Shown one piece after another: positions 19,878-40,502 of a stretch of 43,856 nucleotides of DNA. The position numbers were made by a program, and so were the translations under genes. The stretch comes from Omnitrophica bacterium GWA2_41_15 (GTDB lineage: Bacteria > Omnitrophota > Gorgyraeia > Gygaellales > Profunditerraquicolaceae): positions 12,783-56,638 of the forward strand of contig CAKKQZ010000011.1 of assembly GCA_919902445.1 (NCBI GenBank), in the 5' to 3' direction. The notes under the pieces were generated by a model, which ran no database searches, was not told where the DNA came from, and saw only the letters and a list, made by a program, of their open reading frames with translations. How positions within the stretch are numbered: position 1 is the first letter of the stretch; every line of letters begins with the position of its first letter.

Positions 19878-19946
19878 TTAATGAGTGCATAACTTACGGA
19901 GTACTCGCTTGCGCTCGTTACGACGTAAGTTATTTGCACGAATTAA
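19878..19946 (-). repeat. Family A hairpin repeat, copy A1
   Basis: GTGCATAACTTAC...GTAAGTTATTTGCAC with TTAA at both ends; core almost identical in reverse complement to 27148-27202. Confidence 0.9.
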
Positions 19947-19983
19947 CCCAGCCCCTGCACGCGGGGGCTGGGGAGGTTCGGTA

Positions 19984-20032
19984 GCATAACTTACAAACAC
20001 GTTTAGTGTGAGTAAGTTATCTGCGCGAATTA
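19984..20032 (-). repeat. Family A hairpin repeat, copy A2
   Basis: GCATAACTTAC...GTAAGTTATCTGCGCGAATTA. Confidence 0.9.
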
Positions 20033-20200
20033 TTGAGTACATAAAGTTTCTATTAGCGAAATCCCGTGTAAGCGGATGATCCCTGCATCTTGCTTTACAA
20101 GGGAACGGCGGGAGAAGTTCAGCCGCATCTTGTTTTCCTAAGGTAGTAGCGGGGAGGCCTTAGACACAACTTGCCTTTAGCAGTGATGTATTGAGAATCG

Positions 20201-20258
20201 GGGACACCCTTCGCTTCAGGTCCAAGGGTGTCCCTGCTTCATGTCCAAGGGGGTCCCT
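20201..20258. repeat. Family B-related GGGACA/TGTCCC palindrome
   Basis: GGGACACCCTT...AAGGGTGTCCC plus a partial tandem copy of the right arm. Confidence 0.7.
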
Positions 20259-20264
20259 AATATA

Positions 20265-20293
20265 TTGACTTTTTGGAAGAAGGGTGATATTAT
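20265..20293 (+). promoter_or_regulatory. Sigma70-like promoter of gatCAB
   Basis: TTGACT-17 nt-TATTAT with extended TG. Confidence 0.65.
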
Positions 20294-20317
20294 AACAGAC
20301 TAATATACCGGAGGGGT

Positions 20318-20605
20318 ATGGCAATAGATAAAAAAACAGTTGAATATGTTGCTCATTTGGCGCGTATCGAGCTTAAATCTCAGGAGTTAGAAAAACTCTC
20401 CCAGCAACTGCAGGATATCCTTAATTTTGTCGATAAGCTTAAAGAGATTAACATCAAGGATATTGCTCCTACAAGCCATATCCTGCCTATAAATAACGTG
20501 TTAAGAGAAGATATTCCTAAGGATTCGTTAGCCCCTAAAGATGCGCTCATCAATGCACCAGCCCAAGAAGGAAGCTTCTTTGTTGTCCCGAAGGTAATCG
20601 AATAA
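20318..20605 (+). CDS. gatC: Asp/Glu-tRNA amidotransferase subunit C
   Basis: VAHLARI, LRED, NAP...FFVVPKVIE. Confidence 0.96.
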
Positions 20606-20607
20606 AA

Positions 20608-22047
20608 ATGGAACTTTATAAATTAACCGCTCACGAACTTATCAAAAAATTAAAAAATAAAGAAACCTCTGCGCAAGAGATTTTATCTTCACTAACAATA
20701 AGGATTAAAGAAATAGATTCAAAAGTTAACGGCTATGTCAGGCGCTCGAAAGAAAATATGGACAGTCCCCTCGTTCGCTCCGAGAACGATTCTCACTCGG
20801 GGACAGTCCCTATTTCGGTTAAGGACAATATCTGCACAGAAGGCCTTAATACCGAATGTTGCTCCAAAATATTAGGCGGGTTCAATCCTCCTTACGACGC
20901 TACTGTAATCAAAAAATTAAAAGAGGCAGGCATGCCGATATTTGGCTTAAAGACCAATATGGATGAGTTTGCCTTTGGTTCATCTACTGAAAACTCTTCC
21001 TTCGGCCCTACCCATAATCCATGGAATCTGGAGTGTGTCCCCGGAGGCTCCTCAGGAGGTTCTGCAGCAGTAGTCTCAGCTGATGAAGCGATATGGGCAT
21101 TAGGCTCTGATACAGGAGGTTCTATCCGCCAGCCGGCAGCATTTTGCGGGGTTGTGGGCTTAAAACCTACTTACGGAAGGGTCTCTCGTTATGGTTTAAT
21201 TGCCTTTGCATCAAGCCTTGACCAGATCGGGCCCATTACCAAGGATGTGGAGGATTGCGCTCTATTGATGAATATTATCAGCGGTTATGACCCTAATGAT
21301 TCAACATCCTCAGATACCGATGTCCCTGATTATGCAAAAGCACTGGTAAATGATGTAAAAGGGATAAAAATAGGAATTCCAAAAGAATACTTTGTTCAAG
21401 GGCTAGACCCGGAGGTTAAGTCAATAATAGAAGAAGCTATAAATAAGTTAAAAACCCTTGGGGCTTCATCCAAAGAAGTATCTTTACCCCACACGCAATA
21501 CGCCGTTCCCGTATATTATATTATTGCAACGGCTGAGGCAAGTTCAAATCTTGCAAGATTTGACGGAGTGCAATACGGTTTCAGGTCTGGAGGGCTAACC
21601 CTCATTGAGATGTATAAAAAAACGCGCCAAGAAGGATTTGGCGAGGAAGCAAAAAGAAGGATTATATTAGGGGCTTTTTCCTTGTCACACGGCTATTACG
21701 ACGCATATTATTTACGCGCCTTAAAGGTCCGTACTCTCATAAAACAGGATTTTGACGCGGTCTTTAAAGATTTCGATTGTATTATTACCCCTACCTCTCC
21801 AACTGCGGCATTTAAAATCGGAGAAAAAGTGGCTGATCCTTTAAAAATGTATCTTTCTGATATTTACACGATATCCGTAAACCTGGCGGGGTTACCCGCG
21901 GTATCTATCCCATGCGGTTTTACTAAAAAAGGTTTACCCGTAGGATTACAAATTTTGGCCAAACCTTTTAACGAAGAAATGCTTTTCAGGGTTGCCCATA
22001 CTTATGAGGAAAATAGCGAATGGCATAAAATGAAGCCGAAGGTTTAA
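20608..22047 (+). CDS. gatA: Asp/Glu-tRNA amidotransferase subunit A
   Basis: [38 protein letters not shown]. Confidence 0.97.
20760..20810. repeat. Family B doublet inside gatA
   Basis: GGACAGTCCCC ... GGGGACAGTCCC within the coding sequence. Confidence 0.75.
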
Positions 22048-22048
22048 T

Positions 22049-24737: not shown

Positions 24738-24753
24738 AGATTTTAGTGAAAAG

Positions 24754-25533: not shown

Positions 25534-26543
25534 ACGTACTGGGCATAGAGACATCATGCGATGAAACTTCTGTGTCCATAGTCAGGGATGGGAAAGAGGT
25601 TCTTTCTAACACAGTCAGCTCAAGCGAAAAGTTTCACAAAATATACGGCGGAATTGTTCCGGAGATTGCTTCGCGTATGCAGCTTGAGGCAATAACAGCT
25701 GTTAGCGATTTGGCGATAAAAGAAGGCGCGATAATGCTGAAAGATATAGACTTGATAAGTGTTACCAGCGGGCCCGGGCTTTTCGGTTCTTTGTTAACAG
25801 GAATATCATTTGCTAAAGCCCTAAGCGCCAGTTTACATATTCCGCTTTTAGGAGTGAATCACATCCATAGCCACATCTATGCCAATTTTTTAAATGGGGC
25901 TGGAGTAAAACTTCCGTTTGTGGCATTAGTAGTCTCAGGAGGGCACACAAGTTTATTTTATGTGATGGACTTTGATAAAATAGAAATACTCGGAGAAACT
26001 CAGGATGATGCCTGCGGAGAGGCATTCGATAAGGTAGCAAAAATTTTAGGGCTAGGTTATCCCGGAGGGCCGCATATAGAAAAAATGGCCCTGCGAGGCA
26101 ACCCCGAAAAATTTAAATTCCGATGTTCGGGGACAAAAAGGCCGCTTGATTTCAGCTTCAGCGGAATAAAGACAGGGGTGTTATATTATCTTAGAGATAC
26201 GGGAAGCGGGATACGGGGTCGGGGATCCGTTATCCGTTACCCGCTACCCTTAGTTAAAGACATCGCTGCTTCTTTTCAAGAAACGGTCATAGATGTGCTT
26301 ATTCGGAAATCATTTCATGCATGTAAAGCAAAAAAGGTAAACCGCCTGGTTGTGGGTGGAGGAGTGGCCGCAAATAATAGAATGAGGGGATGTTTTTTTG
26401 AAGCGGCGAAAGATTCCGGTTTTAAGTGTTGGTTTCCAGCAAAAGAACTTTGTACGGATAATGCGGCGATGGTCGCGGGGTTTGGCTATCAATTATTTAA
26501 AAAAGGTAAAATTTCTGGTTTAGATTTATCCCCCTTCGCATAA
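25530..26543 (+). CDS. tsaD: tRNA threonylcarbamoyltransferase TsaD
   Basis: GIETSCDET, H..SH, VSGGHT, DDACGEAFDK, CTDNAAM. Confidence 0.96.
   Translation: MNVLGIETSCDETSVSIVRDGKEVLSNTVSSSEKFHKIYGGIVPEIASRMQLEAITAVSDLAIKEGAIMLKDIDLISVTSGPGLFGSLLTGISFAKALSASLHIPLLGVNHIHSHIYANFLNGAGVKLPFVALVVSGGHTSLFYVMDFDKIEILGETQDDACGEAFDKVAKILGLGYPGGPHIEKMALRGNPEKFKFRCSGTKRPLDFSFSGIKTGVLYYLRDTGSGIRGRGSVIRYPLPLVKDIAASFQETVIDVLIRKSFHACKAKKVNRLVVGGGVAANNRMRGCFFEAAKDSGFKCWFPAKELCTDNAAMVAGFGYQLFKKGKISGLDLSPFA
26196..26249. repeat. Heptamer-periodic inverted tract within tsaD
   Basis: GATACGG GAAGCGG GATACGG GGTCGGG followed by ATCCGTT ATCCGTT ACCCGCT ACCC. Confidence 0.75.
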
Positions 26544-26663
26544 GACCACGTGTATGTATGTGTATGTCCGCCACAATACGTGGAGGATCCGCCATGAATT
26601 ATGGCTGAAATGCGAAGAAAGAGCTGCTTCGGGGGATGTCACTGGATGGGCAAGCCCGTGGGG
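26525..26663 (+). repeat. Family C composite palindromic repeat, copy 2
   Basis: Same ordered blocks as 12136-12255; overlaps the tsaD stop codon. Confidence 0.85.
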
Positions 26664-26699
26664 GTGCCCCATCTGCTCAATTAAATTAAGTCAAGGGAG

Positions 26700-27158
26700 G
26701 TGATCGATATGCTTAGCGACGCTCAGATTATCTTTCGTTTAATTTTAAGCGTATTCTTAAGCGGATTAATAGGCCTTGAGCGCCAAATGCATAAGCGCAC
26801 AGCAGGCCTGCGCACCCACATATTAGTATCTATGGGTTCCTGTCTTATCATGTTGACATCCTTCTATGTTTTTGATATATATAAAGATAAAGCTTCCATA
26901 GACCCTGCGCGGATAGCAGCCGGAGTAATCACGGGTATAGGTTTCTTAGGGGCGGGCGCAATTATCAGGGACAGAGCAGAAGTAAAAGGTTTGACTACGG
27001 CGGCCAGTCTTTGGGTTGTTGCAGGCATAGGTTTAGCTGTGGGGTGCGGTTTTAGCAAGGCAGCTATATATTCAACTGTATTAACACTAATAATCCTTTT
27101 CCTTTTAAGGCGGCTGGAAAGCATTATATTTTTTGAAGATAAGGATACGCGCAGATAA
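26700..27158 (+). CDS. MgtC/SapB family membrane protein
   Basis: IGLER, AGLRTH, DPARIAA.VITGIGFLGAG, GLTTAA; start may be ATG 26709. Confidence 0.92.
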   Translation: MIDMLSDAQIIFRLILSVFLSGLIGLERQMHKRTAGLRTHILVSMGSCLIMLTSFYVFDIYKDKASIDPARIAAGVITGIGFLGAGAIIRDRAEVKGLTTAASLWVVAGIGLAVGCGFSKAAIYSTVLTLIILFLLRRLESIIFFEDKDTRR

Positions 27159-27202
27159 CTTACGTCGTAACGAGCGTAAGCGAGTACTCCGTAAGTTATG
27201 CG
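27148..27202 (+). repeat. Family A hairpin repeat, copy A3
   Basis: CGCGCAGATAACTTAC...GTAAGTTATGCG; contains the mgtC-like stop codon. Confidence 0.9.
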
Positions 27203-27259
27203 GTTGAACCTATCCTTGATACGAAACGACGACATTTGAATTTGAATCTTACGTATCAA

Positions 27260-27321
27260 GGATTAATTCACACATTGACTTACTCATACTGGCGTATTCG
27301 TAAGTCAAGTGTTCATTAAGG
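27260..27321 (+). repeat. Family A variant, copy A4 (exact 62-bp duplicate of 32976-33037)
   Basis: GGATTAATTCACACATTGACTTACTCATACTGGCGTATTCGTAAGTCAAGTGTTCATTAAGG at both sites. Confidence 0.95.
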
Positions 27322-27330
27322 AGGTGTGGC

Positions 27331-27834
27331 ATGGCCTTTAAAAAGAAGGTTGAGGAAAAGATTCTTGACGTCGATGCTTCCATGCAGGGGAGCCTCATTT
27401 TTAAGGACCCGGTAAACTTGCGCATCAACGGAAAATTCGAAGGTAATTTAGAAACCAAGGGCAATTTGACAGTTGGTTCAACTGCCGTGATATCCGCTGA
27501 TATCATAGGTGATAATATTATAGTCGGCGGAAAAGTCAAGGGAAGGATTACCGCTAAGGAAAGGCTGACGCTTTTGCCTTCGGCAGTTGTAGAGGGGTCG
27601 ATTTATCCTGCGAGATTAAATATTGCTGAAGGAGCTATCCTTGAAGGCAATTGCTATATGCTCCATGATTTTTTAAATGCCGAAGAACTTGCACGCTATC
27701 TTGAGGTTGACTTAAATTCTATTATGGAATGGGCTAATTCTGGGAAGATGCCCGGTCAAAAGGAAGGTAGCGACTGGAGATTTGAGAGGAAGGCGATTGA
27801 TTCCTGGGTTGCGTCGGGTAAGATCGAAAGATAA
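27331..27834 (+). CDS. Bactofilin (polymer-forming cytoskeletal) domain fused to a C-terminal excisionase-like HTH
   Basis: Beta-helix pattern LRINGKFEGNL...IIVGGKVKGRI...LNIAEGAILEGNC, then FLNAEELARYLEV...WANSGKMPGQK.G..WRF. Confidence 0.88.
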   Translation: MAFKKKVEEKILDVDASMQGSLIFKDPVNLRINGKFEGNLETKGNLTVGSTAVISADIIGDNIIVGGKVKGRITAKERLTLLPSAVVEGSIYPARLNIAEGAILEGNCYMLHDFLNAEELARYLEVDLNSIMEWANSGKMPGQKEGSDWRFERKAIDSWVASGKIER

Positions 27835-27842
27835 AACAACCC

Positions 27843-28154
27843 ATGGCTGAAGAAAAACTTTTGACGGTAAGGGAAGTAGCTTCATTATTGGGGGTATCGG
27901 AAAAAGAAGTGGTTGATTTAGCTGAAAGCGGCGCTATTCCGGCGTACAAAGTCGGCGGTGTATACTTAAGGTTTAAAAGGGAGCAGGTTAAGAATTTAAG
28001 AAAGTACAGCCGCGCTCCGGCTGCTAAGGTTGTGGCTAAGCAAAAAGCTTCATTTAAGGACCGGGTTAGTGACTTTTTCTATTTCAACGATTTTTATATA
28101 TTGGCAGGGATGTTGATAATTTTGCTTTTGTTAATCATATTCCAGGGAAATTAA
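27843..28154 (+). CDS. Excisionase-like HTH protein with C-terminal transmembrane anchor
   Basis: LLTVREVASLLGVS...GAIPAYKVGG..LRF at the N-terminus; hydrophobic ILAGMLIILLLLIIF at the C-terminus. Confidence 0.85.
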   Translation: MAEEKLLTVREVASLLGVSEKEVVDLAESGAIPAYKVGGVYLRFKREQVKNLRKYSRAPAAKVVAKQKASFKDRVSDFFYFNDFYILAGMLIILLLLIIFQGN

Positions 28155-28158
28155 GATA

Positions 28159-28830
28159 ATGGTTTTAAAATCTAAGTTTTGCGACTTAGGGTTTGCCAAA
28201 GTCGATATAGATAGAAAAAAACGAAGGGGCTTTGCAGAAGCAATATATTCTCCCGGAAAATCTAGGGAGCACTTAAAGAAGATATCCCGGGAATTAATTA
28301 AAAATAAACAGGATTTACTTTTAACTAGGTTAGATAAAAATACCTTTTCTTACCTAAAGAAATCAATCCCCGGATTAAAATACAATCCAAAAGCACGATT
28401 GGGATTCCTCATACAAAATGGAAGGGTTGTCGGCAAGGGCGTATCATTGGTGATTTGCGCGGGGACATCTGACATACCTGTGGCTGAGGAAGCAGCCGCT
28501 GTCCTTGAAGTAATGGGGAATAAAGTGGTCAGGCTTTTTGACGTAGGAGTGGCAGGGGTTCATCGCATAATGCAAAAAATTGAGGTTTTAAAGAAAGCAA
28601 AGGTGATTGTGGTAGTCGCCGGCATGGAGGGGGCATTGGCAAGTTTAGTGAGCGGGCTAGTCAGTTGTCCGGTTATTGCCGTTCCGACCAGCTGCGGTTA
28701 CGGCGCTAATTTTGGCGGGCTCTCGGCGCTATTAACCATGTTAAATAGTTGTTCTCCGGGGGTAGCAGTGGTAAATATCGATAATGGTTTTGGCGCGGGA
28801 TATTTCGCGAGCCTTGTTAACCGGCCATAA
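28159..28830 (+). CDS. larB: Nickel-pincer cofactor biosynthesis protein LarB
   Basis: FAKVD.DR..R.G, AGTSDIPVAEEA, DVGVAG.HR, VAGMEGAL, VNIDNGFGA. Confidence 0.92.
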   Translation: MVLKSKFCDLGFAKVDIDRKKRRGFAEAIYSPGKSREHLKKISRELIKNKQDLLLTRLDKNTFSYLKKSIPGLKYNPKARLGFLIQNGRVVGKGVSLVICAGTSDIPVAEEAAAVLEVMGNKVVRLFDVGVAGVHRIMQKIEVLKKAKVIVVVAGMEGALASLVSGLVSCPVIAVPTSCGYGANFGGLSALLTMLNSCSPGVAVVNIDNGFGAGYFASLVNRP

Positions 28831-28870
28831 GTTGTAAGCGGCTTAACCCTTGGGCCATAAGTTAAGAGCT

Positions 28871-29284
28871 ATGAAGATAAATTTAAAAGAGGCAATAAAA
28901 TTCCACGGCCATCTAGGGCCGTATCTTGTTTTGGGGCTTTTAGCGGGAGAAACAGCCCTTAAAAAATTAAAGTCAAAAAAATATTTCGGATTAAAGGTCA
29001 GTGTGTGGGGAGCAAATAAAAAGCCGAAATCCTGCCTCGTAGATGGTTTGCAATTATCTACAGGCGCAACCTACGGAAAAGGAAATATCCATAAATATAA
29101 TAGCAGGATAATTAAGATTTTATTTTTCGATAAGAACCGTAACAGGAGGCTAACTATTGCGTTAAAAAAAGATTTGATTTTTAAATTGAATACTTTAAAA
29201 GGACATAGGGACTCTGAGGCCTTTGCCAAAAAACTCTATAACCTAAAGCCTTTAAAAGTTTTTGACTTACAATCCATAACTTAA
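28871..29284 (+). CDS. FmdE family protein
   Basis: FHGHLGPYLVLG and C..DGLQ.STGAT.GKGN; ATG 28871 preferred over TTG 28850. Confidence 0.85.
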   Translation: MKINLKEAIKFHGHLGPYLVLGLLAGETALKKLKSKKYFGLKVSVWGANKKPKSCLVDGLQLSTGATYGKGNIHKYNSRIIKILFFDKNRNRRLTIALKKDLIFKLNTLKGHRDSEAFAKKLYNLKPLKVFDLQSIT

Positions 29285-29306
29285 AACTTACTACTGGAGA
29301 AAAAAC

Positions 29307-30638
29307 ATGGCGCTTTCAGGATTGGATATTTACAAATTATTGCCCAAGACAAACTGCCGGGAATGCGGGTTCCCTACCTGCCTTGCCTTTGCCATGCAGC
29401 TTGCAAAAAAGGCAATAAGTATTGATAAATGCCCGTACCTTAGCCAGGAGGCAAAAAAGGTTTTAGAGGCATCAAGCCAGCCGCCTATAAAATTGGTGAC
29501 GGTCGGCGTGGGTGACTCGAGGTTAGAATTCGGTAATGAGACAGTGATGTTTCGCCATGAAGAAAAATTTTTTCATCCCTGCGGAATAGGTTTTATTATC
29601 GAAGATAATTTAAGCGACTCTGAGATTTCGCGAAAGCTCGAGAGGATAAATAAGTTAAAGTTTGAACGCGTAGGACAGAAGATAGAGGTGAATCTTGTGG
29701 CGGTCAGGCAAACCAATGACGGGCAAAGGTTCGTTGACGCGGTGCAGTTAGTTTCAAGCGGCACTTCCTTAGGCCTGGTATTAATGAGCGATGAACCGGA
29801 GGCTCTAAAATCAGCATTAGAAATTACAAGAACAAAAAGGCCGTTAATTTACCATGCCACAAAAAATAATTTAGCAGCAGTTGCGCAGGTGGCCAAGGAA
29901 TTTAATCTGCCGCTAGTTGTTTCTGGCCCTGATTTAGATACTCTCTCAAACCTGACAAAAGAGTTGAATAGCCTGGGCGTTGCCGAGTTAGTTTTAGAGA
30001 CAGAGAAAAAAAACGTTGCGGATAAAATCTGGGATTTAACCCAAATACGAAGGCAGGCATTAAGGAAGTCAAATCGGGCTTTGGGTTATCCTGTTTTGGT
30101 TTTAGTGGAAAATTCCGATCCTTACGAAGAGGCTGTCGAGGCCGCGACTTTTATTGCAAAGTACGCGAGTATGCTTTTGATGAAAGGGACTGAATCCTGG
30201 CAGGTTTTATCGCTTTTAACTTTAAGGCAGAATATTTACACTGACCCGCAGAAACCCTTACAGATGGAGGCAAAGCTTTATGCTATTGGACAGGTAACCG
30301 ATAAATCTCCTGTGCTGGTTACAACTAATTTTTCTTTAAGCTACTACACTGTTTTAGGGGAAGTGGAGGCAAGTAAGATTCCAGCTTACATAGTTAGCGT
30401 AGATACAGAAGGTATGTCCGTATTGACTGCGTGGGCTGCTGAAAAGTTTACTCCGGATAAGATCACGGAGAATTTGGAAAAGTGCGAAGTAGCAAAGGCG
30501 GTTTCGCATAAACGGTTGATTATTCCCGGTTATGTTGCGGTTATGAGCGGCGATTTAGAAGAGAAATCCGGTTGGCAGGTCACTGTCGGGCCAAAAGAGG
30601 CTGCCGGGATACCCAGCTTCTTAAAGAATTTACAGTAG
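29307..30638 (+). CDS. acsC: Corrinoid iron-sulfur protein large (gamma) subunit
   Basis: LPKTNC.ECG.PTCLAFAM, LRQNIYTDPQKP, TTNFSL.Y, SVLTAWAA.KF. Confidence 0.95.
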   Translation: MALSGLDIYKLLPKTNCRECGFPTCLAFAMQLAKKAISIDKCPYLSQEAKKVLEASSQPPIKLVTVGVGDSRLEFGNETVMFRHEEKFFHPCGIGFIIEDNLSDSEISRKLERINKLKFERVGQKIEVNLVAVRQTNDGQRFVDAVQLVSSGTSLGLVLMSDEPEALKSALEITRTKRPLIYHATKNNLAAVAQVAKEFNLPLVVSGPDLDTLSNLTKELNSLGVAELVLETEKKNVADKIWDLTQIRRQALRKSNRALGYPVLVLVENSDPYEEAVEAATFIAKYASMLLMKGTESWQVLSLLTLRQNIYTDPQKPLQMEAKLYAIGQVTDKSPVLVTTNFSLSYYTVLGEVEASKIPAYIVSVDTEGMSVLTAWAAEKFTPDKITENLEKCEVAKAVSHKRLIIPGYVAVMSGDLEEKSGWQVTVGPKEAAGIPSFLKNLQ

Positions 30639-30700
30639 GAATTTCATAACGAAGAAAGTTCCTTTACAGCTTATCGCGGGATAGCTTTCGTCAAAGCTAC

Positions 30701-30752
30701 AGGGACTGTCCCCGTCAAAGCTATTGGTTGTATAACCAGAGGGACTGTCCCT
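30701..30752. repeat. Family B doublet
   Basis: AGGGACTGTCCCCGTCAAAGCTA...AGAGGGACTGTCCCT; matches 41224-41276. Confidence 0.85.
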
Positions 30753-30790
30753 GAACAGATTTAATGAAAACTGTCCCGACCAAATAAACA

Positions 30791-32719
30791 ATGGAAAAAT
30801 TCAAGATTAAATTTTATCCGGACAATAAGACAATCGAGGTTGAAAAGAGCAAGACTATTCTTTCAGCTGCGATATCCGCCGGGGTCTATATAAATTCCAG
30901 TTGCGGCGGCGACGGCGTTTGCGGAAGGTGTAAGGTGATTGTCAAGAAGGGTGAGGTTCTTACCCATCCCACCGGAAGAATAAGCCTGGATGAGAGGGCG
31001 CATGGAGTATATTTATCCTGCCTGACTACTGCGCAAAGCGATTTAGAGGTTGAAGTTCCTCCTGAGTCAAGATTGGATTTTGAGAAGTTATCTGCGCAGG
31101 AACTGGAGTTACGCCTTAAGGGGCTATACGAGGAATCCGAAGAAGTAGAGGAAGTGGTGCCTGTTAAGCCTGAAGAGATTTTTACCCACTCTCCTTTATC
31201 TACAAAATTATATTTGGAATTGCCAAAGCCCACCTTAAAAGATAATATCAGTGACCTTGAGCGGCTATACCGGGAAATAAGGCGTTTAAGCGATGTTCCC
31301 ATTATGCAGGCAGGGCTTGCCAATATTAGAAAACTGGGAGAGTTGCTGCGTGATTCTGATTGGAAAGTCACTGTTACTTTAGGAAAAAGAAATGAAACTG
31401 TTGAGATTGTTTTGGTTGAGCCGGGAGATACTCAAGCTAAAAATTTTGGCATGGCCTTTGATATAGGCACTACTACGATATCCGGGCAACTCGTGGATTT
31501 AAATAATAAAATGGTCTTGGGCACAAGGGCAACATATAATAAACAGGCAAGTTTCGGCAGCGACGTAATCACTCGTATAATCTATGCTCAGGAGGAGGAC
31601 GGTTTAGAAAAACTGCATCACGCGGTTATTGACACTATGAACCATATGATTCAGGATTTAATCCAGGAGTATAACGTTGATCTTAATGACGTAAACTGCT
31701 GTTTGTGCGCGGGAAATACTACTATGGCGCATCTTTTGCTTCGGGTCGACCCCACCTATATCAGAAGGGAGCCGTATGTTCCTACGGCAAATTTTGTGCC
31801 TGTTATACGCGCTGCAGAAGCAGGCATAAAGATAAATCCCCGCGGGCTTTTATCATGTGTTCCCGGAGTTTCCAGTTATGTGGGAGGAGATACTACCTCA
31901 GGAGTTTTATCGAGCGGCCAATATAAAGAAGGAGATTTAAGCATACTGATAGATGTCGGCACTAACGGAGAAATTGTACTTGGTAGTAAAGACTTCTTGG
32001 TAAGTTGCGCCGCTTCAGCAGGGCCTGCATTTGAAGGCAGCGGCGTTACCTGCGGCATGCGCTCGAGTAAAGGAGCGATACAAAAAGTAAAAATAGACCC
32101 TAAGGATTTTGATGTGGTATGCGATACTATCGGTGGGGCCCCAGCGCGCGGCATATGCGGTTCAGGTTATATTGATATCATCGCAGGGATGCTGAAAGTC
32201 GGTATTATCGATAAAAGCGGCAAGATTATAGCAGAAAATAAAAAACGTATCCGCGATAGCGACTTGGGGCGCGAATTTGTGCTTTATTTTAAAGAGCAGG
32301 CAGATTCAACGAGCGATATAGTCGTCAATGAGGCGGATATCGAAAATTTAAAACGCGCCAAAGGCGCAATTTATGCCGCGACTTCTATTTTAGTAAAGCA
32401 CATGGGCCTTGATTTTGCTTCGATAAAGAAATTCTTTATTGCCGGCGGATTCGGGACTTACCTTGATATTGAGAACGCTGTGCGCATCGGTTTATTGCCT
32501 GATTTAGAAAGGCAGAAATTTTCCTTTATCGGAAATAGTTCTCTGGCAGGCGCCAGGCAAATGCTTTTATCCTTTGAGGCAACAAAGATTGCTGAAACAA
32601 TTGCTAAAAAGATCACTTATTTTGAGCTTTCGGTAGACCCGGGCTACATGGATGAGTATATGGCGGCGCTTTTTTTCCCGCATACGGATTTGGAAAAATT
32701 CCCTTCATTAAAAGCTTGA
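30791..32719 (+). CDS. Reductive activator of corrinoid proteins (RACo/AcsV; 2Fe-2S plus ASKHA domains)
   Basis: CGG.G.CGRC, DIGTTT, GSDVITRI, D.GTNGEI, AGPAFEG, AGGFG. Confidence 0.92.
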   Translation: MEKFKIKFYPDNKTIEVEKSKTILSAAISAGVYINSSCGGDGVCGRCKVIVKKGEVLTHPTGRISLDERAHGVYLSCLTTAQSDLEVEVPPESRLDFEKLSAQELELRLKGLYEESEEVEEVVPVKPEEIFTHSPLSTKLYLELPKPTLKDNISDLERLYREIRRLSDVPIMQAGLANIRKLGELLRDSDWKVTVTLGKRNETVEIVLVEPGDTQAKNFGMAFDIGTTTISGQLVDLNNKMVLGTRATYNKQASFGSDVITRIIYAQEEDGLEKLHHAVIDTMNHMIQDLIQEYNVDLNDVNCCLCAGNTTMAHLLLRVDPTYIRREPYVPTANFVPVIRAAEAGIKINPRGLLSCVPGVSSYVGGDTTSGVLSSGQYKEGDLSILIDVGTNGEIVLGSKDFLVSCAASAGPAFEGSGVTCGMRSSKGAIQKVKIDPKDFDVVCDTIGGAPARGICGSGYIDIIAGMLKVGIIDKSGKIIAENKKRIRDSDLGREFVLYFKEQADSTSDIVVNEADIENLKRAKGAIYAATSILVKHMGLDFASIKKFFIAGGFGTYLDIENAVRIGLLPDLERQKFSFIGNSSLAGARQMLLSFEATKIAETIAKKITYFELSVDPGYMDEYMAALFFPHTDLEKFPSLKA

Positions 32720-32740
32720 ACAAGATAAGCACTGCACACA

Positions 32741-32837
32741 GGGACAGCCTTAAAACAGTTACGGGACACCTTCCATCAAAGCAATAAAAACAATAGCTCA
32801 ATGGAAAGTGTCCCGCCGATGAACAGGAGACTGTCCC
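32741..32837. repeat. Nested family B-related palindromes
   Basis: Outer GGGACAG/CTGTCCC and inner CGGGACAC..TCCAT/ATGGA..GTGTCCCG. Confidence 0.7.
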
Positions 32838-32869
32838 TCAATAATATAAGGGTTGCGGTGATAGATAAG

Positions 32870-32924
32870 TGAGGCCATAACTTATGGAGGCGTTTAGCCG
32901 ACATAAGTTATCTGGCCGAACTTA
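32870..32924 (-). repeat. Family A hairpin repeat, copy A5
   Basis: GGCCATAACTTAT...ATAAGTTATCTGGCCGAA, a compensatory variant. Confidence 0.85.
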
Positions 32925-32979
32925 TCCCGTTAGAAATTTTGCGTATTAATTATTGTCAATCTGGTATTTCTAACGGGAT
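32924..32979. repeat. ATCCCGTTAGAAAT inverted repeat between family A copies
   Basis: Perfect 14-bp arms ATCCCGTTAGAAAT/ATTTCTAACGGGAT. Confidence 0.8.
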
Positions 32980-33037
32980 TAATTCACACATTGACTTACT
33001 CATACTGGCGTATTCGTAAGTCAAGTGTTCATTAAGG
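32976..33037 (+). repeat. Family A variant, copy A6 (exact duplicate of 27260-27321)
   Basis: 62 identical bases ending in the acsD RBS region. Confidence 0.95.
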
Positions 33038-33044
33038 GGTTGAT

Positions 33045-34034
33045 ATGGAATTGGCATTGGAGAAGTGGTCAGGGAGCGTTGCAGAGGTTTCTGTTGGTGC
33101 CACTAAAGATGAGGGGGGCACGCGTGCAAAGTCGATTAAGATAGGGGGGCATAAAACTCTGCCTCTTTTATTTAAAGAGAGCGCAATCCCTAATAGGCCG
33201 GTGGTAGCCTTTGAGGTCTGGGATATTGCGCCGACTGAATGGCCGGAAGAATTAATTAAGTCATATGGCGATAAATTAAAAGACCCTGTTGCCTGGGCTG
33301 ATTTTTGCGTGAAAGAATATAAGGCGCAGGTTTTGTGCATAAAGCTTCAGGGATCGCATCCTGATTTTGGGAATAAAACCCCTGATGAGGAAGCAAAGCT
33401 AATAGGCAAAATATTAAAGAGAGTGGATGTCCCTTTGGTAATATTAGGGAGCGGAGACGACTCAAAAGATAATTTGGTTTTGCCTGCAGCAAGCGAAGCG
33501 GCAAAGGGTGAGCGCGCCCTGGTAGGAGACGCGGTTCAGGACAATTATAAGACGCTTGTTGCCGCGGTCCTTGCCGATGGACATAATATTATCGCCGAGT
33601 CTCCGATAGATATAAATATTGCCAAGCAGTTAAATATATTGATTTCAGATATGGGCCTATCTTTAGAGCGTATTGTTATTAATCCGACTATCGGGGCTTT
33701 GGGGTATGGTTTGGAATATGCTTATTCTATTATGGAGCGCGCTCGCCTAGCCGCATTATCAGGGGATAAAACAGTAGCCAATCCTTTTGTATGTTTTGTG
33801 GGGCATGAAGCCTGGAGGGCAAAAGAGGCAAAGGCGAAAATAGCGGAATTTCCCTCATGGGGCCCTGAGCCTGAACGCGGCATAATCTGGGAGGTGATCA
33901 CAGCGGCCGCATTGATACAGTCAGGAGGAGACCTTTTGATTATGCGCCATCCTAAAGCGGTTGAAAAGGTAAATAAATATATAGATGAATTATTTAGGGA
34001 CGCTTCTCAAGTCAGCTATAAGGTGTCCCCTTAA
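33045..34034 (+). CDS. acsD: Corrinoid iron-sulfur protein small (delta) subunit
   Basis: GG...LP, SPIDINIAKQLNILI, ALGYGLEY.YS.MER.RLAAL.GD, MRHP. Confidence 0.94.
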   Translation: MELALEKWSGSVAEVSVGATKDEGGTRAKSIKIGGHKTLPLLFKESAIPNRPVVAFEVWDIAPTEWPEELIKSYGDKLKDPVAWADFCVKEYKAQVLCIKLQGSHPDFGNKTPDEEAKLIGKILKRVDVPLVILGSGDDSKDNLVLPAASEAAKGERALVGDAVQDNYKTLVAAVLADGHNIIAESPIDINIAKQLNILISDMGLSLERIVINPTIGALGYGLEYAYSIMERARLAALSGDKTVANPFVCFVGHEAWRAKEAKAKIAEFPSWGPEPERGIIWEVITAAALIQSGGDLLIMRHPKAVEKVNKYIDELFRDASQVSYKVSP

Positions 34035-35389: not shown

Positions 35390-36361
35390 ATGCCCACAAT
35401 TAAATTCAAGGACACTATAAAGAAATATAATCTTATAAATAAAGGAGACAGGATTGTAATCGGCGTTTCTGGCGGCCCGGATTCCGTCTGCCTTGTTTAT
35501 TTGCTCGATGGATTGAAAAAGGAATTTAAGGCTATGCTTACAATCGCGCATTTAGACCATATGTTGAGAAAAGATTCCAGTAAGGACAGGGAATTTGTGG
35601 AAAAATTGGGAAAAAAATTAGAAATTAAAGTTATAAGCTCTAAGATTAATGTTAAAAAATTGGCTAAATTCGGCTCCCTTGAAGAAATTGCCAGAAACGC
35701 GCGTTTTGGGTTTTTATTCAAAGTTGCGCGGGATGTGAAGGCAAAAAAAATAGCCTTAGGGCATAATTTTGACGACCAGGCAGAGACCGTATTAATGCGC
35801 ATCATAAGAGGCAGCGGCTTAAGCGGCCTTTCAGGGATACTGCCCAAGAGAAATATCTCAGGCTTTGAAATTATCCGTCCGCTTATAGAGGTTAAAAGGA
35901 GGCAAATAGAGGCGTACTTAAAGAGAAAAAAAATCAAGGCCCGAACCGATGTTTCCAATAAGCAGGATTTATTTTTTAGGAATAAAATAAGGAATAAATT
36001 GTTGCCCCTGCTGGAGAGGGATTATAATAAAAATATCAGAGAGGTGCTGGCGAATATGGCACAAAATACAGGGAGCGATTATGATTATTTACAGCAAGCG
36101 GCAAAGCGTTCAATGAGGGGCGCAAAGGCAAAACTTAATCTCGATAGGCTAAGAGAGCTGCACCCTGCAATTCAGCGTTTAATCCTTAGGCGCGCATTTG
36201 CAACTATTAAAGGGGATACCAGGGGGATTACCTTTAAACATATAAGAGAAATAGAAGATTTGATTTTAAACAGGCCTAAAAATTCAGTGGTTGACCTGCC
36301 TAAAGGCATATCTGTAGTAAAGAAAAAACACCTCATTTTTTACCGCAGAGATTTTCAATAA
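35390..36361 (+). CDS. tilS: tRNA(Ile)-lysidine synthetase
   Basis: SGGPDS, H.DH.LR, E..AR..R, H..DDQAETVL, RN.IR. Confidence 0.95.
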   Translation: MPTIKFKDTIKKYNLINKGDRIVIGVSGGPDSVCLVYLLDGLKKEFKAMLTIAHLDHMLRKDSSKDREFVEKLGKKLEIKVISSKINVKKLAKFGSLEEIARNARFGFLFKVARDVKAKKIALGHNFDDQAETVLMRIIRGSGLSGLSGILPKRNISGFEIIRPLIEVKRRQIEAYLKRKKIKARTDVSNKQDLFFRNKIRNKLLPLLERDYNKNIREVLANMAQNTGSDYDYLQQAAKRSMRGAKAKLNLDRLRELHPAIQRLILRRAFATIKGDTRGITFKHIREIEDLILNRPKNSVVDLPKGISVVKKKHLIFYRRDFQ

Positions 36362-36365
36362 CTAC

Positions 36366-36394
36366 TTGATTTTTAAGGTAGTTAAATATATAAT
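36366..36394 (+). promoter_or_regulatory. Sigma70-like promoter of ftsH
   Basis: TTGATT-17 nt-TATAAT. Confidence 0.7.
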
Positions 36395-36404
36395 AAATAA
36401 TAAA

Positions 36405-36463
36405 TAGGGACAGCGACTATTTTTTCTGCGTATATTTACCTGAAAAAATAGTCGCTGTCCCTA
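36405..36463. repeat. Long perfect inverted repeat in the ftsH leader (family B-related ends)
   Basis: TAGGGACAGCGACTATTTTTTC / GAAAAAATAGTCGCTGTCCCTA. Confidence 0.9.
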
Positions 36464-36482
36464 AGAAAAGAAAGGTTGCGAA

Positions 36483-38330
36483 ATGGCAAATAACCGTAAG
36501 CAAAAGATGAACAATATACTCAGGCGCTCTCCCTTCGGCTGGATATTGGCGATAATAATATTCTTCCTCTTGATTAACTCTTTAAATATTCCTATAACCG
36601 GCGTGCCTAAGGAGCTGTCTTATAGCGAGTTTTACCAGGTCCTAAAGAATGGCCCTGAAAAAATTAAGTCCGTAACCAAGGTTGAGTCTATCTTGCAAGG
36701 TGAATTTGCAGATGGTTCCAAATTCTTTGTCAATATTCCCGATAATGACCCTGAACTACTTAGCGCCATGCGCCAGAACCTTAAACATTTTGATGTTAAA
36801 CCGCCACGCACTTTCTGGATAAGCCTGCTTTTTAATTTAGGCCCTATTATGCTTCTGATTTTTTTCTGGTGGATGATGGCTGCGCGCGGCGAGCAGCTGG
36901 GAAACAGGATTATGGGTTTTGGCAAGGTGCGCCCTAAGATTCAAAGCGAAAGGGAGAAGGCAACCTTTAATGATGTTGCCGGGGTTGACGAGGCCAAAGA
37001 AGAACTAAAAGAGGTAATCGATTTTTTAAGCGACCCGAAAAAATTCCAGAAGTTAGGCGGGAAGATTCCGAAAGGAGTTTTGCTTGTCGGCCCTCCCGGT
37101 TGCGGTAAAACGCTTATTGCAAGGGCCGTTGCCGGAGAAGCGGGGGTGCCTTTTTTTAGCATATCAGGGTCGGATTTTGTTGAGATGTTTGTTGGCGTTG
37201 GGGCAAGCCGCGTCCGTGATTTATTTGAACAGGGCAGGCGCGCCGCAAAAGTATCCGGTAAAGGGTCAATAATTTTTATTGACGAAATAGACGCGGTCGG
37301 CCGCTTGCGTTTTTCCGGAATTGGCGGAGGCCATGATGAACGAGAGCAGACGCTGAATGCGTTGCTTGTGGAGATGGATGGTTTTGATACTGCCCAGGGG
37401 ATTATATTGATTGCCGCAACCAACAGGCCCGATACTTTAGATCCGGCCCTTCTTCGGCCGGGAAGGTTTGACCGGACTATTATTGTAAATTTACCCGATA
37501 TCAAAGGAAGAGAGGAGATACTTAAGGTCCATACCAGAAAGATTAAACTTGCGCCTTCAGCAGACCTTAAAGCTGTTGCCTCTTCTACTCCGGGTTTTTC
37601 CGGAGCTGACCTTGCTAATCTTTGCAATGAGGCTGCGCTTCTTGGGGCAAGGGCCAATAAAGAGGCAGTGGACGAAGTAGATTTTGATAAATCAGTTGAG
37701 AGAGTACTTATGGGCCCGGAAAAAAAGAGCCACATTATGTCTAAAAAGGAAAAAGATATTACATCTTTACATGAATCAGGCCATGCGCTCCTTTCTTTGC
37801 TTTTACCCGAGATAGACCCGCTTAAAAAAGTATCCATTATTCCAAGGGGCCTGGCAGGCGGTTATACTTTTACCGCTCCGATAGAGGACAGGCATTATTT
37901 AGGCAAAAAAGAGCTTTTTGCAAGGATTATGGTAATGCTCGGCGGCCGCGTATCAGAAGAGATTAATCTGGATGATATCACCACAGGTGCTCAGGATGAC
38001 CTGGAAAAGGCAACGCAGATTGCCCGGCATATGGTCACGCACTTCGGGATGTCCGAAAAGCTCGGACATATGACATTGGGCAGGCGCGAAGGGCTTTTGT
38101 TTCTCGGACGCGACATTATGGAGGAAAAGAATTACAGCGATGAAACCGCGCGGCTCATAGATGAAGAAGTTAAAAGAATAGTGGATGAGGCCTACCTTAA
38201 AGCAAAGGCACTATTGCAGCAGAATATCGATAAATTAAAGCTCCTCTCAAACACTTTACTGGAAAAGGAAGTGTTAAGCGGAGAAGAAGTAAAACGTTTA
38301 TTGGCAATGGAAAAAGCCGACCTCACCTAA
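36483..38330 (+). CDS. ftsH: ATP-dependent zinc metalloprotease FtsH
   Basis: Two TM segments, [29 protein letters not shown]. Confidence 0.98.
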
Positions 38331-38341
38331 ACCCCTTAGAA

Positions 38342-39526
38342 ATGCGCGTACTCCAAACAGACCGCCCCGAATATATTAAACAAATAATGCAGGATATAAA
38401 AGTTGACCCCTATGGCATTGAGATCATGTATCCCAAAGCCATGCATTATCTTATCCGCATGAACTCAGTTTCAAATATCGCGGCAAACATACTCAAACAA
38501 GAGATGCTCTCTTTAGGTGGCGATGTGGCGGTAGCCAGAGGCGCGCTCACCGGCAAGGTGAATAAAACAGATTGCCTTGTAATGGGAAATCTTTCTCAGT
38601 TTAGCTTATTAAGTGAGAAGTTAAGCAGGCAGCCTTTCGGGTTAAATAGATTATCCGTAGAGCTTTCTTGTGTATTAAGCAATTATCAAAAAGAGAAGTT
38701 TGTCTTGGATTTGGGTAGGTATAAATTAAAGCTCGGTAACGGTACGCATATTATGGGAGTTTTAAACCTTACGCCCGATTCTTTTAGCGGCGACGGGCTT
38801 TATGGCAGAAAAACAGAAGAGATAATCGAGCATGCGCAAAGGCTAGCGAGCGACGGAGCTGATATCCTGGATATCGGGGGAGAATCGAGTAGGCCCGGAG
38901 CCGTTGTAGTTCAAGAAAAAGAAGAATTAAAAAGGGTAATCCCTGTAATAAAATTACTTGTGAAAAAAGTAAAGGTGCCTATATCCATAGATACTTATAA
39001 ACCGCAAGTAGCTAGGGCAGCATTGGATAGCGGTGCCCTCATTGTAAATGATATATCGGGATTAAGAAATCCAAGGATGGGGAGAATAGTTGCGCAATAT
39101 AGGGCCGCTGTTGTAATCATGCATAGGAAAGGAAATACTCTGTCGATGCAGAAGAACCCCCGGTATGAATCTCTAATAGACGAAATACTGCAGTATCTTG
39201 AAAAGGCAATCAACAGGGGAGTTGAAGCAGGGATTGATAAAGATAAGATTATAGTTGACCCAGGAATAGGTTTCGGAAAAACTACAGAGCACAACCTTGA
39301 AATATTACAAAACCTTAGTGATTTTAAAGCGCTCGGCAGGCCTATATTAGTAGGCACTTCAAGAAAATCTTTTATAGGCAAAATCTTAAATGCCAAACCA
39401 CGGGAAAGGATTTTTGGAACAGTATCCAGCTGCGTATTGGCGGTGAAAAACGGTGCCAAAATAATCCGCACGCATGATTGCCTAGAGATTAAACAGGCAT
39501 TAAGGGTATTAGATGAGGTGCGCTAA
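38342..39526 (+). CDS. folP: Dihydropteroate synthase with N-terminal extension
   Basis: MGVLNLTPDSFS, DIGGESSRPG, DPGIGFGK, SRKSF, RTHD. Confidence 0.95.
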   Translation: MRVLQTDRPEYIKQIMQDIKVDPYGIEIMYPKAMHYLIRMNSVSNIAANILKQEMLSLGGDVAVARGALTGKVNKTDCLVMGNLSQFSLLSEKLSRQPFGLNRLSVELSCVLSNYQKEKFVLDLGRYKLKLGNGTHIMGVLNLTPDSFSGDGLYGRKTEEIIEHAQRLASDGADILDIGGESSRPGAVVVQEKEELKRVIPVIKLLVKKVKVPISIDTYKPQVARAALDSGALIVNDISGLRNPRMGRIVAQYRAAVVIMHRKGNTLSMQKNPRYESLIDEILQYLEKAINRGVEAGIDKDKIIVDPGIGFGKTTEHNLEILQNLSDFKALGRPILVGTSRKSFIGKILNAKPRERIFGTVSSCVLAVKNGAKIIRTHDCLEIKQALRVLDEVR

Positions 39527-39547
39527 GGGCAGGGTAAATAGATAGAG

Positions 39548-40318
39548 ATGGGCGAGTTGAGCATGCTAATAACCTGGAAACCGATAATTGAAATACTGAT
39601 ACTTTGGTTTGTGATCTATCACATTATGCTCTTCTTTGAAGGAACGCGCGCTATTTCTGTATTAAGGGGGATTGTAATTGTCCTAGTCGCATTCTTTTTA
39701 TTTGAAAAACTAAACCTACAGGTGTTAAACTGGTTGTTTACAAAATTATTCGGCATATCAATCATAGCTATTTTGATAATCTTTCATCCTGAAATAAGGC
39801 AGGGATTAGCGCGGCTTGGCCAGAGGCATCTTTTTTCTCCCGCTTTAAGGGAGGAAGAACTGGACTATATGCTACGAGAAATAGGCATTGCGGCGGATAG
39901 CCTCTCCAGGAATAAAATCGGGGCCCTTATTGCCATTGAGAAGAATGATCCGTTATCCGGCTATATTGAAAGCGGAGTTAGTGTTGATGCGCGCGTTAGC
40001 GCGGAATTAATCGAAGCGATATTTACTCCGAATAATCCGCTTCATGACGGAGGTTTGATTATTCAGCAGGGAAGAATCGCTGCAGCCGGATGTTTATTTC
40101 CGCTTTCAGAGAATAAAGAATTAAACCGTATATTCGGCACAAGGCATAGGGCAGCTTTAGGTTTAAGTGAAGAAACCGATGCCGTAGTAATCATTATTTC
40201 CGAAGAAAGGCAGGATATATCCTTAGTTTACAGGAATAGGTTATATAAAGATTTAAGCAGAGAAGATATGCTCCTTAAGATAAAAGAGGTTATAAAACTT
40301 ACAAAAGAGAATGATTAA
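39548..40318 (+). CDS. cdaA: Membrane diadenylate cyclase CdaA/DacA
   Basis: Three TM segments, PE.R..L, LHDG, GTRHRAA.G.SE. Confidence 0.95.
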   Translation: MGELSMLITWKPIIEILILWFVIYHIMLFFEGTRAISVLRGIVIVLVAFFLFEKLNLQVLNWLFTKLFGISIIAILIIFHPEIRQGLARLGQRHLFSPALREEELDYMLREIGIAADSLSRNKIGALIAIEKNDPLSGYIESGVSVDARVSAELIEAIFTPNNPLHDGGLIIQQGRIAAAGCLFPLSENKELNRIFGTRHRAALGLSEETDAVVIIISEERQDISLVYRNRLYKDLSREDMLLKIKEVIKLTKEND

Positions 40319-40448
40319 AGAAAAAGCCAGTATTGTTTACAGGGTTAGGCATTTGTTTATTTATCATCCCTGGCTAAAAATCCTCGCTTTAATACTGGCG
40401 ATTATAGTATGGCATTATGCCAGTGATGAGATAAGCAGGTTTAACTAA
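40311..40448 (+). CDS. 45-aa membrane peptide resembling the CdaR (YbbR) N-terminal TM segment only
   Basis: Not in the ORF track; translates to MIKEKASIVYRVRHLFIYHPWLKILALILAIIVWHYASDEISRFN; overlaps the cdaA stop by 8 nt. Confidence 0.7.
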   Translation: MIKEKASIVYRVRHLFIYHPWLKILALILAIIVWHYASDEISRFN

Positions 40449-40502
40449 TTCGCGCAGATAACTTACTCGCACTGTCGTGTTCGTAAGTTATGCGCTCATT
40501 AA
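40446..40502 (+). repeat. Family A hairpin repeat, copy A7
   Basis: TAATTCGCGCAGATAACTTACTC...TCGTAAGTTATGCGCTCATTAA. Confidence 0.9.

Follow-up and report, generated by a model that had tools for sequence, protein, structure and literature searches.

We analyzed a stretch of 43,856 nucleotides (the window) from the genome of Omnitrophica bacterium GWA2_41_15 (assembly GCA_919902445.1, contig CAKKQZ010000011.1, positions 12,783 to 56,638; a window coordinate is the contig coordinate minus 12782), in which a short hairpin repeat, here called family A, recurs between genes. Our analysis suggests that family A is probably a non-autonomous, hairpin-forming repeat module specific to the Omnitrophota and conserved as folded DNA, similar in kind to repetitive extragenic palindromes (REPs) and bacterial interspersed mosaic elements (BIMEs), to BOX elements or to small miniature inverted-repeat transposable elements (MITEs). 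This reading draws on the copy number, structure, distribution and position of the repeat, on its presence or absence between relatives and on the missing link to the genes of REP-associated tyrosine transposases (RAYTs). The genome as a whole comprises 1.29 Mb in 97 contigs and is 94.6% complete.

Under such a model, copies would be made elsewhere in the genome and also be duplicated in tandem, and they would persist only where the element does no harm, at the boundaries of genes. The TCATTAA end could there adjoin a ribosome-binding site or start codon directly, and the reversed end (TTAATGA or TAAGTGA) could supply stop codons. The folded single strand of DNA would be what is recognized or copied, hence the hairpin would be kept with no need at the level of the mRNA. 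Family A would then be selfish or neutral DNA, presumably moved by a hairpin-specific enzyme common to the phylum.

Structure and covariation of the hairpin

Family A forms a hairpin of 55-70 nt (model length 68). Its 5' half consists, in order, of (GGA)TTAAT, TC, a 4-bp stem, a bulge A(N0-2) and a 9-bp stem of the form NNNACTTAY; a tip of 11-28 nt follows (once 73 nt), often with a stem of its own of 2-4 bp; and the 3' half runs RTAAGTNNN, 4-bp stem, TC and ATTAA. A first-pass annotation of the window had noted TTAA at both ends of several copies, a sign that could be taken for a target duplication. Because both sides change together, giving TAAGT/ACTTA in copies of the GGCC subtype and TAAAT/ATTTA elsewhere, these ends are instead a paired outer stem, and the hairpin is better parsed as an outer stem TTAAT/ATTAA, a TC/TC internal loop, the 4-bp stem, the bulge and the 9-bp stem. 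The stem variants given by the annotation were correct, both for what it called the outer stem (GCGC/GCGC, GTGC/GCAC, GGCC/GGCC and ACAC/GTGT) and for the core (ACTTAC/GTAAGT versus ACTTAT/ATAAGT) and inner stem (GCAC/GTGT versus ATAC/GTAT).

The strong compensatory covariation claimed at that stage was found again in two separate alignments. The first (A2) contained 46 copies of this genome, 39 of them picked by a script requiring pairing in the two inner stems, with no pairing requirement for the outer and tip helices. In this alignment 94.7% of the cells were paired, 13 of the 22 pairs had changed on both sides, and 114 cells showed changes on both sides against 24.6 +/- 4.3 in shuffles, none of the 500 shuffles being as high; when the partner was slid by 1-3 columns as a control, pairing fell to 20-41%. 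Because 39 of the 46 copies had been chosen for inner-stem pairing, the count was redone on a second alignment (A3) of 44 copies, all from other genomes and aligned by fitting to the model. Pairing there reached 95.9%, with 16 of the 22 pairs changed on both sides and 161 such cells against 38 +/- 5, and once more none of 500 shuffles reached that number. The hairpin is under structural constraint, and structure counts more than sequence in this family. The short flank motif TAATTCNNNNA by itself occurs at chance level (14 matches, 14.6 expected); it is the whole element, not the flank motif, that stands far above chance. Several unpaired stretches, namely AATTC, the bulge A, the GTTC.C...TCC tip and TCATTAA, are nevertheless retained in copies from other classes.

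Both strands are equally stable as single-stranded DNA, with folds of -12 to -16.5 kcal/mol and z scores of -3.2 to -7.0. The stems of the 108 distinct copies of the genome hold 1898 Watson-Crick cells, 19 G·T cells and 28 A·C cells. G·T is not in excess over A·C, so that there is no sign of an RNA fold under selection; counts of this kind are what perfect DNA palindromes give when they decay neutrally. The count bears on the main competing explanation, in which family A would be a cis-acting RNA element whose hairpin, placed 5' of the ribosome-binding site or start codon, stabilizes or processes the mRNA as a protective stem or an RNase III-type site. In a variant of this explanation, the upstream stop and the downstream start would meet at the foot of the helix, which would let translational coupling persist over a 60-nt spacer. 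A fold kept for the mRNA should tolerate G·U and purge A·C, which is not what the stems show. On the other side, the predicted RNA fold of the cluster at 27130-27345 forms hairpins that leave the Shine-Dalgarno sequence unpaired, and the unpaired letters kept across classes would also fit an RNA element. In a reading for promoters and terminators made by eye only, the sense strand showed no T-run 3' of the hairpin, nor was there a good -35/-10 pair. A search for RNA data covering 26000-34000 of the window found none.

The longest tip in the genome, 73 nt, belongs to a variant at 13301-13391 of contig C52. Tips of the reversed GGCC/GGAC subtype also bear A+T-rich inserts of about 30 nt.

Spread, placement and presence in relatives

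A simple core pattern located about 100 loci in the genome, and a profile built from the 46 aligned copies located 117, of which 108 are distinct in sequence. The covariance model (R1) gave 128 matches at E<=0.001, a few of these being the two strands of one locus. Many contigs of the genome end inside a copy, so that the repeat breaks the assembly. The copies group into 82 clusters, 52 with one copy, 25 with two and 5 with three, and other short hairpin modules lie between copies. Adjacent pairs are direct in 27 cases and inverted in 8; the TCATTAA end, present in 88 of the 117 copies, faces out of the cluster, as it does in all 8 inverted pairs. The nearest relative of each of the 81 full copies is found at another locus and never next door, with a similarity ratio of at least 0.97 for 15 of them, and the parsed hairpins of the window copies 27259 and 32975 are identical in every letter. 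These likenesses suggest that copies reach new places besides being duplicated in tandem. At 15845-16223 of contig C52, the final 45-52 nt or so of a gene occur three times with hairpin cassettes between them, each made of an H or T module (described below) plus family A, an arrangement that looks like a tandem duplication of gene tail plus cassette.

The repeat extends well beyond this genome. Of 40 further genomes of the order searched with R1, 30 carry it; by family, these are 22 of the 24 genomes in the family of our genome and 8 of the 16 outside it. At E<=1e-6, R1 matched 91 genomes in a sample of 150 others from this uncultured phylum. When one genome for each bacterial and archaeal species was scanned (GTDB-wide) with an exact pattern, at least 115 stretches matched; among the first 80 of these, nearly all were titled Omnitrophota or Omnitrophica, the rest being metagenome-assembled genomes (MAGs) labeled Planctomycetia or “uncultured bacterium” and a handful of singletons at the number expected by chance. 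Among metagenome contigs, R1 gave 12 matches on 5 of 80 loci (876 kb). The best metagenome relative of AcsC, the product of a gene of the window, is 75% identical in protein, so these contigs hold no near-identical strain. One exact pattern match in viral contigs scored only 16 bits with R1, lacked the flanks and was set aside as apparent chance. The first-pass annotation had not recognized the family, and no described REP, MITE or Rfam family matches it: at the gathering score, Rfam returned nothing on the window except RNase P and tRNAs, 10 of the 46 aligned copies gave no Rfam match at E<=1, and our literature search returned no paper on repetitive, palindromic or intergenic-hairpin repeats of Omnitrophota. 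Family A is a module of an Omnitrophota-wide mosaic repeat for which we found no published description.

Within the genome, copies are extragenic; only 3 of the 117 fall inside open reading frame (ORF) calls of at least 100 aa, and these calls look over-long. Convergent spacers hold no copy and divergent spacers hold 11; of the 1092 spacers in the genome, 41 are convergent and 41 divergent. Among the 102 copies with a known neighbor, 88 have the 3' end turned toward a gene start, and orientation matches the genes in 63 of the 74 co-directional spacers. In the remaining 11 the copy is reversed; reversed copies mostly belong to the GGCC / ACTTAT / TCACTTA subtype, in which TAAGTGA at the end of the upstream gene supplies the stop codon. 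Gene strand bias is unusually strong here, 1012 of 1059 ORF calls (96%) being co-oriented with the local GC skew, and no copy-bearing co-directional spacer runs against that skew. Since the genes themselves follow the skew, replication and transcription are inseparable as causes of the orientation bias.

The register with translation signals is close. TCATTAA is followed either at once by GGAGG, with the start codon 5-9 nt further on, or by 2-4 nt and ATG with no Shine-Dalgarno sequence, and real starts of the latter kind occur at pdxJ, hisG and galT. Fifty-two genes start within 60 nt downstream of a forward copy, 40 of them annotated; the products encoded include GlyRS, ClpB, BamA, AccC and PfkA, and groEL, whose identity was confirmed via relatives, also directly follows a forward copy. 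In other classes copies again adjoin a Shine-Dalgarno sequence and ATG, and copies upstream of groES, groEL, tuf and ribosomal-protein genes turn up in different lineages.

Comparison with relatives showed that individual copies come and go. One relative, represented by contigs of the public run X6 and about 95% identical to the window in the genes alongside, lacks two of the window's four clusters (27144-27319 and 32718-33043), each of which is bridged by a contig. On one contig, 27143 is joined to 27320 with 25 other letters between; the MgtC-family protein encoded there has five other final residues and its own stop, after which the identical GGAGG follows, the right edge of the gap at 27320 lying exactly between TCATTAA and GGAGG. 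On the other contig, 32717 is joined to 33044 with 13 letters between, and a stop, 12 nt with AGGAG and a start stand where the window has 325 nt of repeats. A palindrome of a second repeat family at 36407-36461 (described below) is missing in this relative as well. The first-pass annotation had envisaged empty sites with a single TTAA; the two sites that could be compared are replacements, with no target duplication at either junction. In a syntenic metagenome contig from another genus (L058; AcsC 74% identical), a forward copy of another subtype lies before the same helix-turn-helix (HTH) gene as in the window. At 8320-8385 of that contig, the interval from the TAA stop of the HTH gene to the next ATG is exactly occupied by a symmetric variant, both ends of which are of the TCATT type; the corresponding interval of the window is a spacer of 8 nt (27834-27843). 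At groEL, 5 of 29 relatives have any copy and none has a forward copy abutting the gene. Family A behaves as dispensable, dynamic DNA. A further joint, 20032->20123 (skips 90, side 21; X1, X3, X4), was rejected as evidence of absence because a copy and an S module usually meet in just this way and the contigs probably come from other loci.

The placement of the copies speaks for an RNA element: the sense orientation in co-directional spacers, the 3' end turned toward the start, the two fixed arrangements after TCATTAA, the real starts lacking a Shine-Dalgarno sequence and the recurrence before groES, groEL, tuf and ribosomal-protein genes in different lineages would all fit it. A strand-specific DNA mechanism, however, would give the same orientation bias in a genome with 96% of its genes co-oriented with GC skew, and one subtype is regularly antisense (the 11 of 74). 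Moreover, the relative that lacks the clusters retains a plain Shine-Dalgarno spacer in their place, and the groEL position is not kept. The dispersed regulatory RNA motif that the first-pass annotation had proposed as one option is therefore not supported by the stem counts (19 G·T vs 28 A·C), by the clusters missing in the relative or by the groEL position. It is because of the phylum-wide conservation, the register with translation signals and the recurrence before highly expressed genes that we still give a functional RNA some weight, while judging it unlikely.

The same placement might also be read as that of a portable cassette for gene junctions, kept across all Omnitrophota, with stop codons on one face, an end adjacent to the ribosome-binding site or start on the other, and a helix base that sets stop beside start. 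Ribosomes would then couple translation across the helix, or an RNase would process the transcript there, and a non-RAYT, hairpin-specific enzyme of the phylum would copy the cassette into highly expressed operons. We regard this proposal as rather doubtful.

Several observations also weigh against a folded DNA repeat that is selfish or neutral. Eight of the 40 annotated downstream genes encode ribosomal proteins, alongside those for EF-Tu and NusA, neighbors that would fit a role in expression, and orientation follows the genes in 63 of the 74 co-directional spacers. Conservation of sequence across a phylum is unusual for selfish repeats; REPs have been described as specific to single species (PMC2817692). 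In three lineages, namely those of the window, of L058 and of G088 (a genome of another class), a forward copy accompanies the same HTH gene. No clean insertion with a target duplication was seen, both sites compared being replacements, one of which removes five codons of the upstream gene, and each of these events may be a gain in the lineage of the window or a loss in the relative. Finally, as no mobilizing enzyme was found, it is from their distribution alone that the copies are called mobile. Even so, the preferred reading remains that of a repeat conserved as folded DNA.

Candidate mobilizing enzymes and known repeat families

The enzymes that could move such a repeat were considered in turn, beginning with RAYTs. 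The genome encodes four divergent RAYT-like (Y1) genes, best matched by the model for REP-associated tyrosine transposase NF047646 at 71-75 bits (cut-off 80). Each of the four, on contigs C56, C44, C60 and C51, is bracketed by inverted (T)AGGGAC...GTCCC(T)A repeats, which belong to a second family of at least 93 palindromes in the genome with zero overlap with family A. This GGGAC family is represented in the window at 20200-20234, 30702-30751, 32763-32814 and 36407-36461, and the arms of the last are the same as those around the RAYT-like gene on C51. The bracketing of each RAYT-like gene points to a canonical REP/RAYT system beside family A. A REPtron is a RAYT gene flanked by two inverted REP copies, and the presence of the gene goes with REP abundance (PMC2817692); these defining features are found in the GGGAC family and not in family A.

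Family A might still be a true REP mobilized in trans by one of the RAYT (Y1/HUH) transposases of the genome, even though none is flanked by it. The four RAYT-like genes supply a possible source of activity, the element, an imperfect hairpin whose bulge is conserved and whose flanks are unpaired, belongs to the type of substrate that HUH enzymes read, and a Y1 gene is present in 23 of the 30 relatives with family A. Against this, each RAYT-like gene has its own GGGAC-type inverted repeats. The first-pass annotation had named a RAYT or TnpA gene flanked by copies as something to look for, and R1 (E<0.01) found no family A within 1.5 kb of any of 16 Y1 loci, four from this genome and the 12 best-scoring in relatives. 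Among the 40 relatives, which are incomplete MAGs, the other 7 genomes with family A show no Y1 gene, including G028 (94% complete, 18 matches) and G027 (90% complete, 14 matches), and a Y1 gene occurs in 6 of the 10 genomes lacking family A and is missing from 4. Neither a GTAG nor a CGTC tag appears in the A2 and A3 consensus (5' ...AATTC, 3' TCATTAA). Mobilization in trans by a RAYT is thus quite improbable. The REP-like character suggested at the outset holds for the high copy number, the extragenic position and the palindromic form, and does not extend to the HUH/RAYT link.

Descent from an insertion sequence was considered as well. As a MITE, family A would be a deletion derivative of an element with a DDE transposase, moved via its terminal inverted repeats; its arms are indeed inverted repeats, its copies are dispersed and TTAA is frequent at both ends. 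However, the only DDE_Tnp_1 element of the genome (C48:474-2311) has 18-nt terminal inverted repeats unrelated to family A, rve is represented by one fragmentary match on a 1-kb contig, and neither locus has an R1 match. In this genome we saw no split hairpin and none that carries a gene: of 13 candidate arm pairs none encloses a gene, 12 being separate copies or apparent chance and the exception being the variant with the 73-nt tip. The flanking TTAA co-varies as a stem and is not a direct duplication, and no duplication was present at the two empty sites compared. We consider a MITE origin very improbable. Among known MITEs, the Correia repeat enclosed elements (CREE, or NEMIS) of Neisseria measure about 100-150 bp, have a TA duplication and are able to create promoters; neither duplication nor promoter is shown for family A. 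Like family A, CREE/NEMIS are small inverted-repeat elements found beside genes and transcribed with them, and they can affect how adjacent genes are expressed; their RNA can be bound or cleaved by RNase III (PMC2649163).

A folded recombination site for a tyrosine recombinase, acting in the manner of an integron attC site or of single-strand Xer recombination, would be another kind of DNA hairpin. With its paired outer box, a spacer left unpaired, extrahelical bases in the inner stem and a variable tip, family A resembles attC sites in layout, and strict Watson-Crick stems would suit a DNA substrate. The genome has just two tyrosine recombinase genes, however, with no family A beside either, and copies lie among syntenic housekeeping genes and not in cassette arrays, so that we take this explanation to be extremely improbable. 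A search of the genome for the GxxExxY (PD-(D/E)XK) nuclease PF13366 gave no match, at its completeness of 94.6%.

REP and BIME repeats (Nunvar 2010, PMC2817692; Di Nocera 2013, PMC3733652) resemble family A as high-copy extragenic imperfect palindromes that occur in mosaic arrays with other modules, with several types per genome, probable co-transcription with flanking genes and no target duplication. REPs are, however, 20-40 bp long with a GTAG or CGTC tag and are located chiefly 3' of genes, in spacers flanked by unidirectional and convergent ORFs (PMC3733652), whereas family A is 55-70 nt long, has no such tag, lies at gene starts with 0 copies in convergent spacers, flanks no RAYT and is conserved across a phylum instead of being species-specific. 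Its copy number is also unrelated to the presence of a Y1 gene, a weak test given incomplete MAGs. BIME units are regularly spaced and alternate in orientation (PMC2817692), unlike the tandem copies of family A, which are mostly direct (27 vs 8 inverted). The CGTC-tagged REPs are a palindromic super-family apparently without a dedicated transposase (PMC3733652), an orphan status shared by family A, but they differ from it in tag, sequence and host range, which is mainly alpha-Proteobacteria.

The BOX, RUP and SPRITE repeats of Streptococcus pneumoniae (Croucher 2011, PMC3049150) offer a second parallel. Like family A, they are modular small repeats with extensive secondary structure and no evident function of their own; they are judged parasitic, modify gene ends, transpose rarely and are co-transcribed with their neighbors, so that effects on expression are likely (PMC3049150). 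Family A differs in spanning a phylum, whereas BOX occurs only in S. pneumoniae and its close kin; it also has no sequence relationship to these repeats and, unlike them, is registered to stop and start codons.

What was found thus sets family A apart from REP/RAYT systems, BIMEs and attC sites, and no parent insertion sequence, as for a MITE, was seen in this genome. By analogy, we would describe it as an orphan REP/BOX-like repeat that may work most like REP/BIME or pneumococcal BOX, as small, folded, non-autonomous DNA tolerated at gene boundaries. Omnitrophota genomes are small and tightly packed; the genome studied here is about 92% coding (by crude ORF calls), yet it carries about 117 copies of family A and at least 93 of the GGGAC family. 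Family A shows how repeats colonize essential operons without breaking them, by ending exactly at translation signals and rewriting gene ends, and it is a clean case of a REP-like family that coexists with a canonical RAYT/REP system and is yet separate from it, which poses the question of the mobilizing enzyme. In practice, the repeat fragments assemblies and misleads the calling of starts and stops; it is also a phylum-specific marker, and its covariance model is usable in annotation pipelines.

Copies and companion modules in the window

R1 placed all seven copies listed by the first-pass annotation (at 19878, 19984 and 32870 on the minus strand and at 27148, 27262, 32978 and 40446 on the plus strand), and six of them do run the same way as the downstream gene. 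The list was incomplete, as a degenerate eighth copy lies at 12933-13000(+) (34.9 bits, E 2.3e-5). The conserved flanks reported there are present in full-form copies (TTAATTC...TCATTAA), but the TCATTAA end is missing from the copies at 19984 and 27148, in which the 3' side passes into the next module (...GTTGAAC...).

The first cluster is on the minus strand. A full-form copy at 19872-19950 (66 bits, E 9.6e-14), with a GTGC/GCAC stem and a long tip of 27 nt, is oriented toward a GH149-like gene at 16581-19814(-), and as single-stranded DNA its fold has -13.5 kcal/mol and a z score of -3.2. A short G+C hairpin spacer, CCCAGCCCC...GGGGCTGGG, read from the sequence at 19947-19973, separates it from the second minus-strand copy at 19969-20037 (49.7 bits, E 2.4e-9), which lacks TCATTAA and runs on at its 3' side as ...CCGAACCTCCCC. 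The cassette of this second copy includes companion modules over 20027-20157, as read on the minus strand: a T module at 20027-20083, consisting of a CCCGC-TTAC-GCGGG-type hairpin plus ...CTCAATAATTC, and two S hairpin modules at 20081-20120 and 20121-20157, of the form CCCGC...GCGGG with GAAnTTnTCC ends. T and S modules are found again at many loci of the genome.

The second cluster, on the plus strand, begins with a copy at 27138-27216 (41.8 bits, E 3.1e-7) whose 5' end is truncated (GGATACGCGC) and which has no TCATTAA. The MgtC/SapB-family ORF at 26700-27158 takes its last four codons and its stop (27156-27158) from this copy. A spacer hairpin module, H, with the arms ATCCTTGATACG...CGTATCAAGGAT follows at 27212-27263(+); it belongs to a family seen again at other loci and would be the middle one of the three hairpins in the predicted RNA fold of the cluster. 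The full-form copy at 27259-27325(+) (76.5 bits) has an ACAC/GTGT stem; its TCATTAA ends at 27319, the Shine-Dalgarno GGAGG occupies 27320-27324 and ATG is at 27331.

The third cluster opens with a minus-strand copy at 32860-32928 (72.6 bits) of the GGCC / ACTTAT / TCACTTA subtype, which opposes the direction of the genes at the 5' side of its cassette and folds as single-stranded DNA with -15.5 kcal/mol (z -7.0). A locus-specific spacer hairpin, ATCCCGTTAGAAAT...ATTTCTAACGGGAT, read from the sequence at 32924-32979(+), links it to a plus-strand copy at 32975-33041 (76.3 bits), in which TCATTAA is followed by GGGGTTGAT and then by the acsD ATG at 33045. The fourth locus is a solo copy with GCGC stems at 40441-40508(+) (77.8 bits; single-stranded DNA fold -12.4 kcal/mol), where TCATTAA is followed by AT and then by the pdxJ ATG at 40505, with no Shine-Dalgarno sequence.

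Longest-ORF calls enter the repeat at 40490-40505 and at 26700-27158, as it holds an in-frame ATG and TAA, and automatic start and stop calls beside family A elements are likely to be wrong. Among the neighboring genes, those at 27331-34034 include a Wood-Ljungdahl cluster encoding the AcsC gamma subunit, AcsV and the AcsD delta subunit, preceded by the HTH gene mentioned above, which encodes a small protein with an excisionase/MADS1-like HTH domain and has orthologues with a family A copy in L058 and G088.

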